From NCBI RefSeq assembly GCF_056746865.1, contig NZ_CM163382.1: a stretch of 64,000 bases of DNA; one strand, 5' to 3'. The position numbers are program-made. Positions 12,001 through 15,000 of this stretch are shown here, one piece after another; position 1 is the first letter of the stretch, and each line of letters starts with the position of its first letter.

Positions 12001-15000
12001 ATCACCGAGGAGAACTCTAGGCACACCTGTTCTGTATTCGCCGGGCAACTGTTCATGGAGGTGACCAGCGAGAGCGCATTGCTTTTCTTGTTGTCGGAAC
12101 CCGCCAGTTCTTGCGCGTCCTCAAGACTAAACGACACTTTTTCAACCGCACGCAGGCTACGCGCAGCTTCTGACTGGGTGTCGAAGGTAGCAATTGTCGT
12201 GTTGTTCCCTGCCACACAGGTGACTTTGTCGCCTGGTGTAAAGGTAAAGCCATCGCTGGATTCATCATTACAGGTGATATCACCAGTTACCCGCAGGCTT
12301 CCGCCCAGGGTCAGATAACCCGTTTTCGTAGGAACAGGTTCTGGCTCCGGTTCTGGTGTTGGCTCAGGATCAGGTGTCGGTTCCGGCGTAGGTTCAGGCT
12401 CCGGCGTTGGCTCAGGCGTCGGCTCCGGGTTTGGTGTTGGATCAGGTTTCACTTCCGGCAAAGACCCTGTTCCAGAATCTACAGGCGGCGTATCGGAGGA
12501 AGATCCGGAACCACCGCCATCACAACCGGCTAACAGGGTTGCGCTCAAAATAGCCGCTAAAAGCGATTTCTTATATTTAAATTTCTTATTCATTAATAAC
12601 GCAAGTGACAAAACAATGTTAAAAAATTCGTAACTGGGAGAAATAGTTTTATGCTTTATCTTCTCTAATAACTTCCTCCATTCTTAAGAAAACGACATCA
12701 TTGATAGAAAACAGGTGAAATTTATAAGAATAACCCCTATACGATGTCTATCTGGCTATTTTTACGAAATTTCAACAAACAAAAAATTAACAACATTTCA
12801 CAACGTAACTATATAAATTTGTTGGTAGTTTTAACGATTAAGATTGCAAAAGCAACAGATAGAACGGTGTTTGCTCATCAAGCGAACATAATTAATACAG
12901 ACTTGTTTTGCGTGATAAAAAAATAGATGTTCTCACGCTCTTAATTATTTAGCAGGTTATCTGAACGCAAAACATTATTGCTGCATGGATAATAAAGCGA
13001 GAAATGATTTTCAATTAATAAGACAGAATAATGTAAATGAAGCCGGATGATATTAACGATCATCCGGCTTTATTGATTTACGAGACTAACATCCCGGTAA
13101 ACACATACGCCTGCAGCAGGGTGATAATGCCGATAACGCTGGCAAAAATCAGACTGTGCTTCACGGTGTAGCGGAACAGTTCAGATTCTCGGCCCACCAT
13201 GCCCGTCGCGGCGCAGGCCACGGCGATAGATTGCGGGGAGATCATCTTGCCAGTTACGCCGCCGCTGGTGTTTGCTGCCACCAGCAGGGTGTCAGAGACG
13301 TTGATTTGCTGCGCCGTGGTCGATTGCAGTGAACCAAACAGGGCGTTAGAGGAGGTGTCCGAGCCGGTAAGGAATACGCCCAGCCAGCCGAGAAACGGTG
13401 AGAAGAACGGGAACATCACGCCTGTACCTGCCAGTACCAGCGCCAGCGTGGTGGACATGCCAGAATAGTTGGTGACGAAGGCGAACGCCAGCACCATGCC
13501 AATCGACAGTATCGGCCACTTCAAGCTAATTAGCGTTTCGGCAAAGACGCCAATACCTTTCTTGATCCCCACACCGAGGATGAAGATAGAGATAATCGCC
13601 GCAATAAAAATAGCGGTGCCGCCAGCCGAGAGGGGGTCGAATTTAAACACCGCATCCATTAGCGTTGGTTGGGCGACAATGGGTGCCGCTTTCAACACTT
13701 GTTGATGCAAATGAGGGATCTGGAAATTAATCACCAGTGAATAAAACGCGCCGCCCGGAGCAAATAACGCTTTAAACGGCTTCATGGTCCAGATGGTGAC
13801 CAGCACCGTTAAGATTAAAAACGGTGACCACGCTCGAATGATTTGCCCCAGACTATATTCTGAAGGCACGGGACCGCCAGAAGATGGCTTATTTACCACC
13901 ATCGCACCTGCGGATTGTCCCATGCTGATTGCCGTTTCGGTATTTTTCGGCCGCCAGACTTTAAGGAATAAAGCGAGTGAGACGATACTCACCAGCGCCG
14001 AAGTAATATCCGGCAGTTCCGGACCAATATAGTTAGAGGTAAAGAACTGAGTGACAGCGAAGCTTCCCCCAGCAACCAGCGCCGCTGGCCACGTCTCTTT
14101 CACCCCTTTCCAGCCGTCCATCATTGCTACCAGCCAGAACGGCACAAGAACCGACAGGAACGGTAACTGACGTCCCGCCATTGCGCCAATGTGGAACGGA
14201 TCGATTCCCGTTACCTGACCGGCGACCAGAATCGGCACGCCCAACGCACCAAACGCCACCGGCGCAGTATTGGCAATCAGACACAGCCCCGCCGCGTATA
14301 ACGGTTTGAAGCCCAGGCCCACCAGCAGCGCACCGGTAATCGCCACCGGCGCACCAAAGCCAGCCGCTCCTTCCAGCAACGCACCAAAGGAGAAACCAAT
14401 CAGTAACACCTGCAAACGCTGATCGTCGGTGATGGAGATAACCGAGCTGCGGATAATATCGAACTGCCCGCTGGCAACGGTTAATTTATACAGGAACACC
14501 GCCGCGACAATAATCCACGCTATTGGCCATAATCCATAAATAAAGCCATAGCCCGCAGCAGCAAATGCCATATCAATCGGCATTTTAAAGGCGAATATTG
14601 CAATCAGGATAGATAATATAAGGGTTATTGCTCCAGCGACATGTCCTTTCAGACGTAATACCGCGAGTGCAACGAAGAAGAATATTATCGGGATCAGGGC
14701 GACCAGAGCGGATAGCCCCAGTCCTCCCATCGGCATATACATTTGGGTCCAGGTAACCATATTGTTCAGTCTCTTATTATCTTTATATGCTTGATATACT
14801 TAAGGTTGTAATAAGCAAAAGAGGACTGAACTGTAAAATATAGGCGTTATACTTTACAGCAACAGTACGCCGCTAACGCAATTGCTACCTCTGGCATAAC
14901 AAGTATATCGGGTAAGGGTTTCTGTTCCGCACACGCAGGCGCAGAGTATCGTTAAGATGTCCATATTGTTGTTTTAGGCCCGCTAGTAATGCGCTACGGG

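Follow-up and report, generated by a model that had tools for sequence, protein, structure and literature searches.

Background

SslE (YghJ) is a broadly conserved mucinase and vaccine candidate that is secreted by T2SS-beta, and the region controlling its gene is therefore of practical interest. This control region is already known: its promoter and the roles of H-NS, StpA, Fis and TypA have been dissected, and it has been catalogued as an H-NS-bound promoter island. The sslE promoter was mapped in the gap between glcA and sslE, with a 5'RACE start that agrees with that of ETEC H10407; Fis was found to activate it, and H-NS to repress it, strongly so at 22 °C (Tan et al. 2016, PLoS One 11:e0162391, PMC5012682). 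The same H-NS and Fis control was described in ETEC (Yang et al. 2007, J Bacteriol 189:142, as cited in Tan 2016, PMC5012682). In hns mutants sslE mRNA increased 2.2- to 3.5-fold at 22 °C, and 7.2-fold in strain EC958 at 37 °C, with the strength of repression at 37 °C differing among strains (Tan 2016, PMC5012682). The fragment delimited by primers 5570/5571 gave 411 Miller units, a value that fell to 217 on mutation of fis and to 173 on mutation of the Fis region F2, while putative Fis site F1 was dispensable for activation (Tan 2016, PMC5012682).

A second point of reference is the class of E. coli promoter islands (Shavkunov 2009; Panyukov & Ozoline 2013, PMC3661553), by which we mean regions either listed as such or showing an extremely high density of predicted start points over 300 bp or more. 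The K-12 yghJ/glcA gap is among 78 such islands in E. coli (Panyukov & Ozoline 2013, PMC3661553). Island 3117080_374 (Table 1 of that paper) was H-NS-bound in all ChIP studies compared (Grainger, Kahramanoglou, Oshima) and was tagged as foreign-gene-associated by one predictor. In addition, yghJ has been placed among H-NS-sensitive genes with multiple H-NS motifs (Lang 2007).

A third relative is the gspA/gspC (T2SS-alpha) region of K-12, which is likewise AT-rich, silenced by H-NS and in control of a T2SS operon (Francetic et al. 2000, as cited), and appears in the promoter-island list too (as 3453428_392). It differs from the glcA-sslE gap in its locus, in its unrelated sequence and in the divergent rather than tandem arrangement of its genes. 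We know of no role described for Fis at gspA/gspC.

Genomic context and overall organisation

The glcA-sslE intergenic gap analysed here lies at positions 12594-13077 of a 64-kb stretch of DNA (64,000 nt, referred to as the window), and is a non-coding segment of 484 bp flanked by two minus-strand genes, bounded by the sslE ATG at 12593 and the glcA stop codon at 13078-13080. On one side, sslE (8025-12593, minus strand; NF037973, 3473 bits) encodes a 1522-aa lipoprotein metalloprotease and is the first gene of the sslE-pppA-gspS-gspC...M operon, of which gspC, gspD, gspE and gspF are intact downstream in the window. On the other, glcA (13078-14760, minus strand; NF007249, 1272 bits), encoding glycolate permease, abuts a hairpin with its 3' end. 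The locus and its flanking genes are those of ETEC H10407 and UPEC UTI89, with T2SS-beta intact as in both of these strains, whereas K-12 retains only a remnant of it. The gap is ~95% identical to that of UTI89, with allelic differences only, and represents the phylogroup-A/K-12 allele, being 100% identical to K-12 sequence, including C600. Beyond this local stretch the window is not K-12.

In our assessment, the gap is very probably the known regulatory region of the sslE/T2SS-beta operon, consisting of a terminator hairpin, an unstructured leader and, between them, a weak promoter that H-NS silences and Fis stimulates. Read along the minus strand, glcA would end at a 12-bp hairpin that terminates glc transcription and keeps glycolate-induced read-through out of sslE. 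Approximately 220 bp of AT-rich upstream DNA would follow, with putative Fis sites F1 (about -138) and F2 (-42 to -67), then a weak sigma-70 promoter initiating transcription at 12820 and a 227-nt AT-rich leader without a Shine-Dalgarno sequence preceding the sslE ATG. H-NS, together with StpA, would coat the AT-rich, locally curved DNA and silence the promoter, maximally at ambient temperature and in a strain-dependent manner at 37 °C. Binding of Fis at F2, immediately upstream of the -35 element, would oppose H-NS and approximately double promoter output. For homologous or identical sequence, the literature documents an active promoter on the fragment, its start by 5'RACE, hns derepression, reliance on Fis and F2, and occupancy by H-NS in K-12 ChIP data. 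To these the present analysis adds exact coordinates for the elements, a negative result for RNA and peptide elements in the leader, and the observation that half of the AT-rich gap is transcribed.

Composition and conservation of the gap

The GC content of the gap was 30.4%, compared with a window average of 52%; equally AT-rich segments made up only 0.11% of the 484-bp segments in the 64 kb, and the GC minimum among segments of this length fell at 12558-13041. Of 5426 complete E. coli genomes, 4307 carried the gap, with identities of 91-100%; in the 40 RefSeq E. coli records listed, the matching segment overlapped no annotated feature. Its absence from some strains is a secondary loss. An origin as an ancestral genomic-island boundary was ruled out, as the strains without the gap carry IS4 beside the hairpin together with a deletion that extends into gspK.

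Between E. coli and E. albertii, conservation peaked at the hairpin, the F1 block, the block containing F2 and the -35 and -10 elements, and the translation start, while the central part of the leader, at only 50-60% identity, was less conserved than anything else in the gap. Peaks at DNA elements together with a dip in mid-leader form the pattern of a region regulated at the DNA level.

A sequence-only reading of this locus had described a long AT-rich leader of about 450 bp upstream of yghJ. The AT-rich, non-coding character of the region holds, with an actual length of 484 bp, and the term leader applies to only 227 of these (12820-12594). With a start at 12820, transcripts include only about half of this AT-rich DNA, and the remainder consists of promoter, upstream regulatory DNA and terminator.

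The sslE promoter and its putative Fis sites

The transcription start was placed by matching the three primers of Tan et al., all of which are exact in UTI89, and their stated Fis-site positions to the UTI89 sequence. Exactly one UTI89 position satisfied both geometric constraints, with F1 having its centre at -138 and the three overlapping sites falling between -41 and -68, and this position aligns to an A at 12820 on the minus strand of the window (about ±1 nt). The primers 5570/5571 fragment corresponds to 13077-12787 of the window, or -256 to +33 in UTI89 numbering, and aligns without gaps apart from one T; likewise, F1, F2, the -35 and -10 elements and the start all align to UTI89 without indels except for this T, UTI89 being one T shorter in the run at 12919-12925. 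On this homology we infer the coordinates of the individual elements in the window.

Anchored on the start, the core sigma-70 promoter would occupy 12828-12855 (minus strand), with a -35 element TTGCTT (12855-12850), a 16-nt spacer and a -10 element TAAAAC (12833-12828). By consensus it is weak (3.5 bits, 98.4th percentile in our own position weight matrix (PWM) scan), and the block at 12873-12824 was the best-conserved promoter block, 80-85% identical to E. albertii. The sslE start was not found in the supplements searched for genome-wide K-12 start-site datasets, including Cappable-seq and SMRT-Cappable-seq.

Putative Fis site F1 (GTTCAGATAACCTGC; 12952-12966, minus strand) is centred at -139 here and at -138 in UTI89, the offset of one reflecting the shorter T-run. 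Its G and C ends are kept in E. albertii, within a block that is 85-90% identical between the two species. The putative F2 region (12862-12887, minus strand; -42 to -67) comprises three overlapping 15-mers of the form G-N13-C. The window carries the F1 and F2 15-mers of UTI89, with a single internal base differing in the third F2 15-mer.

A stronger-looking TATAGT sits 20 bp downstream of the mapped promoter. As the -10 element of the mapped start (12813-12808, with a start at ~12801) it was rejected, fitting neither the F1 position nor the three-site description of F2; it is possibly a minor second promoter.

H-NS binding, promoter density and curvature

Converted with an offset between U00096 versions 2 and 3 that we take to be +1978 (±2 nt), island 3117080_374 (U00096.2 3117080-3117453) covers 12539-12912 of the window. 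Promoter prediction was among the checks proposed by the sequence-only reading. No site in the gap came out of a scan for consensus promoters; a PWM scan, used as a surrogate for PlatProm, returned 38 promoter-like sites in 12594-13077 on both strands versus 9.7 expected, making the gap the third-densest 484-bp segment of the 64 kb (~4× the window average). The identical K-12 sequence is a listed island, and the fourfold excess of promoter-like sites is shared. Promoter islands are described as transcriptionally near-silent, producing short oligonucleotides only, whereas this one holds a mapped, Fis-activated promoter; near-silence is partly contradicted in other strains by the 411 Miller units of the fragment in UTI89 and by strong expression in some strains.

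Predicted DNA curvature peaked at ~12702 with 19.8 degrees per turn, a value within the highest 1% for the window. The H-NS 10-mer motif TCGATAAATT had 15 sites with at least 7 of 10 matches, compared with 11.8 ± 3.1 in dinucleotide shuffles; the absence of an excess means that the count is explained by AT content.

The earlier suggestions that this AT-rich DNA is a target of H-NS-type silencing, and that sslE/T2SS-beta expression depends on conditions, are both borne out by published data: derepression in hns mutants, repression at 22 °C and Fis activation (Tan 2016, PMC5012682), and H-NS binding of the identical K-12 gap in all the ChIP studies compared. Promoter activity and nucleoid-protein binding are accordingly both on record for the region.

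The hairpin downstream of glcA

The hairpin at 13040-13070 (minus strand), detected by terminator scan and folding, has a 7-nt loop on a perfect 12-bp stem with six G-C pairs; none of 200 shuffles equalled its folding energy of -20.6 kcal/mol (z = -6.55). It begins 7 nt past the glcA stop codon, and its minus-strand 3' flank, CAUUUACAUUAUU, contains at least 5 T in 8 nt as used in the terminator scan, although the U-tract is interrupted rather than a continuous U-run. Stem, loop and stability fall within the ranges used for intrinsic terminators (G+C-rich stem of 5-14 bp, loop of 3-8 nt, stability above chance). All pairs are retained in E. albertii, two of them as G-U. Across the nine E. coli compared, the ten inner pairs did not vary, while two strains differed at the second pair above the foot, which is mismatched in SBF22 and changed in both arms yet still paired in Yu5.

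Given its distance of 7 nt from the stop codon, its strong stem, its U-rich tail and the way E. albertii keeps the altered pairs as G-U wobbles, we read the hairpin as the probable intrinsic terminator of glcA, as the sequence-only reading had proposed, at the end of the glc operon; in that role it would insulate sslE from glc read-through. It shares with Rho-independent terminators of enterobacterial operons the G+C-rich 12-bp stem, the 7-nt loop, the U-rich tail and the position just past the stop of the last gene. From typical members it differs in the interrupted U-tract and in an A-rich 5' flank that pairs with the tail into an extended helix, as in bidirectional terminators. With such symmetric flanks (A-rich 5', U-rich 3'), the hairpin may terminate transcription in both directions.

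It is unlikely that the hairpin is instead a 3' stem stabilising mRNA or a REP-like palindrome, with glc transcripts ending through Rho or entering sslE. The interruption of the U-tract speaks for such a role, as does the resemblance of the outer stem, GCCGGATG...CATCCGGC, to what we take to be the ends of REP elements. However, the hairpin is single-copy per genome (median one place), unlike REP elements, and the terminator scan picks it out at a distance from the glcA stop, and with a stem preserved in E. albertii, that suit a terminator; moreover, sslE has its own mapped promoter, under H-NS and Fis control unrelated to glycolate. The text of the Term-seq supplement of Adams 2021 contained no match to the names or coordinates of glcA and sslE, and so no glcA 3' end, which also favours the non-terminator role; the glc operon is uninduced in standard media.

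Possible antisense transcription across the sslE promoter

The best-scoring promoter-like site of the gap in the PWM scan was on the plus strand, with TTGATA (12701-12706), a 16-nt spacer and TATAAG (12723-12728). That it serves as an E. coli-specific antisense promoter (12701-12728) beside that of sslE, giving a ~330-nt transcript that crosses the sslE promoter and stops at the symmetric hairpin, is a long shot. If it did, antisense transcription could add transcriptional interference to silencing by H-NS, and the transcript could account for an RNA-derived ChIP-chip signal at the yghJ promoter.

The sslE leader

The 5' UTR of sslE (12594-12820, minus strand; 227 nt) is AT-rich and had neither a Shine-Dalgarno sequence nor detectable conserved structure. 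Its length and the temperature-dependent expression of sslE could point to an RNA regulator, be it a riboswitch, an RNA thermometer hiding the start codon, an attenuator or the source of an independent small RNA, and a sigma-32 ChIP-chip signal published for the yghJ promoter, ascribed to contaminating RNA, hints at an abundant transcript. Nevertheless, searches of the gap against Rfam families matched none, with chance-level matches only at E-values up to 10, and the leader folded no better than shuffled sequences (z = +0.26; 119 of 200 shuffles at least as stable). RNAalifold on 11 Escherichia sequences gave an unfavourable covariation term (+0.44), with a double change in only 3 of 70 pairs. 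It did propose a 17-bp A-U/G-U pairing of a U-rich stretch (~12789-12773) with the start-codon region; this duplex was matched by 85 of 500 shuffles, however, and 5 of its 17 pairs are broken in E. albertii. Predicted accessibility of the start site equalled that of shuffles and was nearly flat from 22 to 42 °C, and an RNA thermometer based on this pairing was rejected because in silico the pairing did not outperform shuffles and showed no sensitivity to temperature. With mid-leader also the least conserved part of the gap, an RNA regulator of any of these kinds is very improbable, and we infer a leader without an RNA-level device. The small RNA that the sequence-only reading had entertained thus finds no backing in Rfam matches, excess folding or covariation.

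Small open reading frames

Finally, an unannotated small protein encoded in the gap, whether a leader peptide of 19 aa (at 12796) or 10 aa (MEEVIREDKA, 12682-12650, minus strand) or a 60-aa product of the opposite (plus) strand (12744-12926), is barely credible, with no Pfam match and no curated MG1655 small-protein annotation at the locus. The 19-aa frame or its ATG is lost in BLR, GN02350, AR451, Z1323, SBF22 and Yu5; the 10-aa frame is intact in all nine E. coli but lacks a Shine-Dalgarno sequence, and its ATG is gone in E. albertii. The 60-aa frame lies just downstream of the TTGATA-N16-TATAAG site and is open from the same start in seven of nine E. coli variants, unusual in DNA of 30% GC; against this, E. 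albertii has it broken and SBF22 carries a truncated version, its C-terminus shifts with T-run length, and its pN/pS of 0.49 is no different from the 0.45 of an out-of-frame control, with pN exceeding pS against Yu5. The leader peptide suggested earlier is likewise unsupported, the frames in the gap being either not conserved or devoid of coding signal. In BLR, the 60-aa frame begins one codon earlier, at TTG.

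The glcA-sslE gap as a regulatory region

The 484-bp gap (12594-13077), which holds no notable ORF, lies between glcA (13078-14760) and sslE (yghJ; 8025-12593), both on the minus strand and matching NCBIfam equivalog or exception models (1272 and 3473 bits, respectively). It is free of annotated features in all 40 RefSeq E. coli records listed. The gap is real and functional, and was known before this analysis. The sslE start site was mapped in UTI89 by 5'RACE (Tan et al. 2016, PMC5012682) and, according to that paper, agrees with the promoter that Yang et al. 2007 located in ETEC H10407.

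Published elements were placed using the primer table and stated Fis-site geometry of Tan et al. 2016 on the UTI89 locus sequence, in which primers 5570, 5571 and 4052 had exact matches. Every candidate +1 was scanned for a G-N13-C 15-mer centred at -138 together with three overlapping 15-mers inside -41 to -68. UTI89 gave a single solution, an A lying 227 nt before the ATG and corresponding to window 12820 in the alignment; the identical scan on the window sequence returned 12819-12821. From these published numbers, by transfer to this strain, we infer the following minus-strand coordinates: the putative Fis sites F1 (12966-12952) and F2 (12887-12862), both from UTI89 geometry; a -35 TTGCTT (12855-12850) followed by a 16-nt spacer; a -10 TAAAAC (12833-12828), placed from +1; the +1 itself at 12820, from the UTI89 alignment; and the 5' UTR from +1 to the ATG (12820-12594). 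The active cloned fragment would correspond to 13077-12787. The sequence-only reading had called the entire gap a leader; AT-rich DNA does precede sslE, but the wording was loose, and 'leader' is used here for the 5' UTR only. In strain PSS-08-1 an IS1 element lies in the leader (~12776), some 45 nt past the inferred start, splitting the promoter from sslE, which is annotated there as a truncated pseudogene.

The cloned promoter fragment gave 411 Miller units, compared with 217 in a fis mutant and 173 when F2 (-41 to -68) was mutated, while F1 (centre -138) was dispensable; hns mutation raised sslE mRNA 2.2- to 3.5-fold at 22 °C and, in EC958, 7.2-fold at 37 °C (PMC5012682). Moreover, yghJ is among the H-NS-sensitive genes carrying multiple H-NS motifs (Lang et al. 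2007), and the K-12 yghJ(-)/glcA(-) gap (U00096.2 3117080-3117453) is one of 78 'promoter islands', marked 'A' as H-NS-bound in all compared ChIP studies, those of Grainger, Kahramanoglou and Oshima (Panyukov & Ozoline 2013, PMC3661553). The hns-mutant mRNA data at 22 °C and the K-12 ChIP data bear out the earlier suggestion of H-NS-type silencing and condition-dependent expression. In window coordinates the island spans about 12539-12912, using a U00096 v2-to-v3 offset which we take to be +1978 (±2 nt). On the sslE promoter, a sigma-32 ChIP-chip 'target' (3117399, about window 12858) was reported to be a false positive, growing larger with shorter RNase treatment (Waldminghaus & Skarstad 2010).

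Base composition and promoter-like sites

GC content of the gap was 0.304, versus 0.52 window-wide. Equally AT-rich 484-bp windows made up only 0.11% of all, and the lowest-GC one in the 64 kb was 12558-13041. Estimated DNA curvature (wedge model) peaked at 19.8 degrees per turn at ~12702, within the transcribed leader and in the window's top 1%. The H-NS 10-mer motif was no more frequent in the gap than its AT content predicts. Other low-GC (0.31-0.36), promoter-dense stretches were seen upstream of yghO, at the junction occupied by IS5 in K-12 (23568-24060), in the gap that separates yghS and yghT in MG1655 (34518-35035) and within the pitB-gss gap (36917-37465). A local GC peak of 0.595 is due to a long imperfect GGY-TCN/GGC repeat (12330-12450, minus strand) encoding a Gly/Ser/Pro-rich linker in the N-terminal part of SslE, just past the lipobox.

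A sigma-70 PWM scan with a cut-off at the window's 99th percentile found 38 promoter-like sites in the gap versus 9.7 expected, in agreement with the promoter-island label; a stricter scan returned zero in the region. The placed sslE promoter was weak (98.4th percentile). TATAGT (12808-12813, minus strand), a near-consensus -10 hexamer 20 bp downstream of the placed -10, could represent a minor second promoter starting at about 12801; its counterpart is GATAAT in E. albertii and GATAGT in strain Yu5. The top-scoring site in the gap was antisense to sslE (TTGATA-N16-TATAAG, 12701-12728, plus strand, 8.9 bits), followed after 16 nt by a 60-aa ORF (12744-12926, plus strand) and then the symmetric hairpin. 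E. albertii keeps its -35, but neither the -10 nor the ORF.

Conservation and the search for an RNA or peptide element

The gap was found as a single copy in 4307 of 5426 complete E. coli genomes (91-100% identity), and the order glcA-hairpin-gap-sslE also occurs in E. albertii and Escherichia sp. E1V33. Overall identity to E. albertii was 70%, rising to 80-90% at the hairpin, 85-90% in the F1 block (12972-12933), 80-85% across F2, -35 and -10 (12873-12824) and 90-100% over the translation start and first 11 sslE codons (12561-12610, minus strand), the best-conserved part of the locus, and falling to only 50-60% in mid-leader. Conservation thus follows control sites at the DNA level, not the RNA.

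A hidden small RNA or leader peptide, proposed earlier, found no support, and none is detectable in the sslE leader. Rfam searching of the leader matched no family, the 258-nt leader and start region folded no better than shuffles (z +0.26), and the covariation term of a consensus fold of 11 Escherichia sequences was positive (unfavourable). A 17-bp duplex joining the start codon to a U-rich stretch was equalled in 85 of 500 shuffles, insensitive to temperature in silico and broken up in E. albertii. Among candidate ORFs, a 19-aa one at 12796 was without its ATG or out of frame in several E. coli strains, a 10-aa one at 12682 lacked its ATG in E. albertii, and the 60-aa plus-strand ORF, open in E. 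coli, was broken in E. albertii; its C-terminus varied, its pN/pS equalled that of an out-of-frame control, and Pfam returned no match. A GGAGG lying 82 nt before the sslE ATG (12675-12679) was invariant in 11/11 sequences, with no obvious role.

We propose that H-NS/StpA filaments would cover the AT-rich, locally curved DNA on both sides of +1 and silence the weak sslE promoter, chiefly at low temperature (the silencing itself having been shown in published work), and that Fis, bound at the putative F2 adjoining -35, would oppose silencing and recruit RNA polymerase, as published genetic evidence suggests. Despite its conserved translation start region, sslE lacks a Shine-Dalgarno sequence ahead of its ATG. 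A positive effect has been reported for TypA, a ribosome-associated GTPase; speculatively, it may operate at translation start of this leader.

The hairpin at the glcA 3' end

The AT-rich non-coding DNA and hairpin described by the sequence-only reading were both recovered, the latter (13040-13070) as a perfect 12-bp stem with a 7-nt loop, its first base 7 nt past the glcA stop codon. Its fold (-20.6 kcal/mol, z = -6.55) was matched in stability by 0 of 200 shuffles, and in E. albertii stem changes yield G-U pairs and no mismatches. The A-rich 5' flank pairs in an outer helix with the tail immediately following, CAUUUACAUUAUU, giving a nearly symmetric element. The hairpin would stop glc-operon transcription and shield sslE.

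In three strains without the gap (EC21Z-144, 25DN and AVS0362), window homology stops just beyond the hairpin foot (~13036), where IS4 follows, and the adjacent deletion extends into gspK. This looks like an IS4-associated loss running from sslE across pppA and gspS to gspC and on into part of gspK.

Gene layout and origin of the window

Downstream of sslE, the minus strand carries pppA, gspS and then an intact gspC-D-E-F... type II secretion cluster (T2SS-beta), GspC, D, E and F each matching equivalog models. The 901 bp surrounding the gap are 100% identical to K-12 C600, and the region is colinear with MG1655 (window position + 3106519 = NC_000913.3 position). Despite this local identity the window overall is not K-12: gspD/E/F are intact, sslE exceeds the MG1655 version by two codons, and an 8.4-kb block (23627-32015) occupies the MG1655 IS5 (IS5LO) site between yghO and yghQ. 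No pheV tRNA was present within window 1-16000. In UTI89 the positional counterpart of this block, the yghO-yghS interval, includes lptF/lptG-like genes along with those for fatty acyl-AMP ligase and serine palmitoyltransferase.

SslE fragments sharing 97-99% identity with E. coli occur on two short contigs of a metagenome-assembled genome labelled 'Collinsella sp.', a bin almost certainly contaminated with E. coli DNA. The gap between glcA and glcB (also minus strand) holds a full-length C0719 small RNA (Rfam RF00117, 299 bits; 14839-15060, plus strand), antisense to the glc operon direction.
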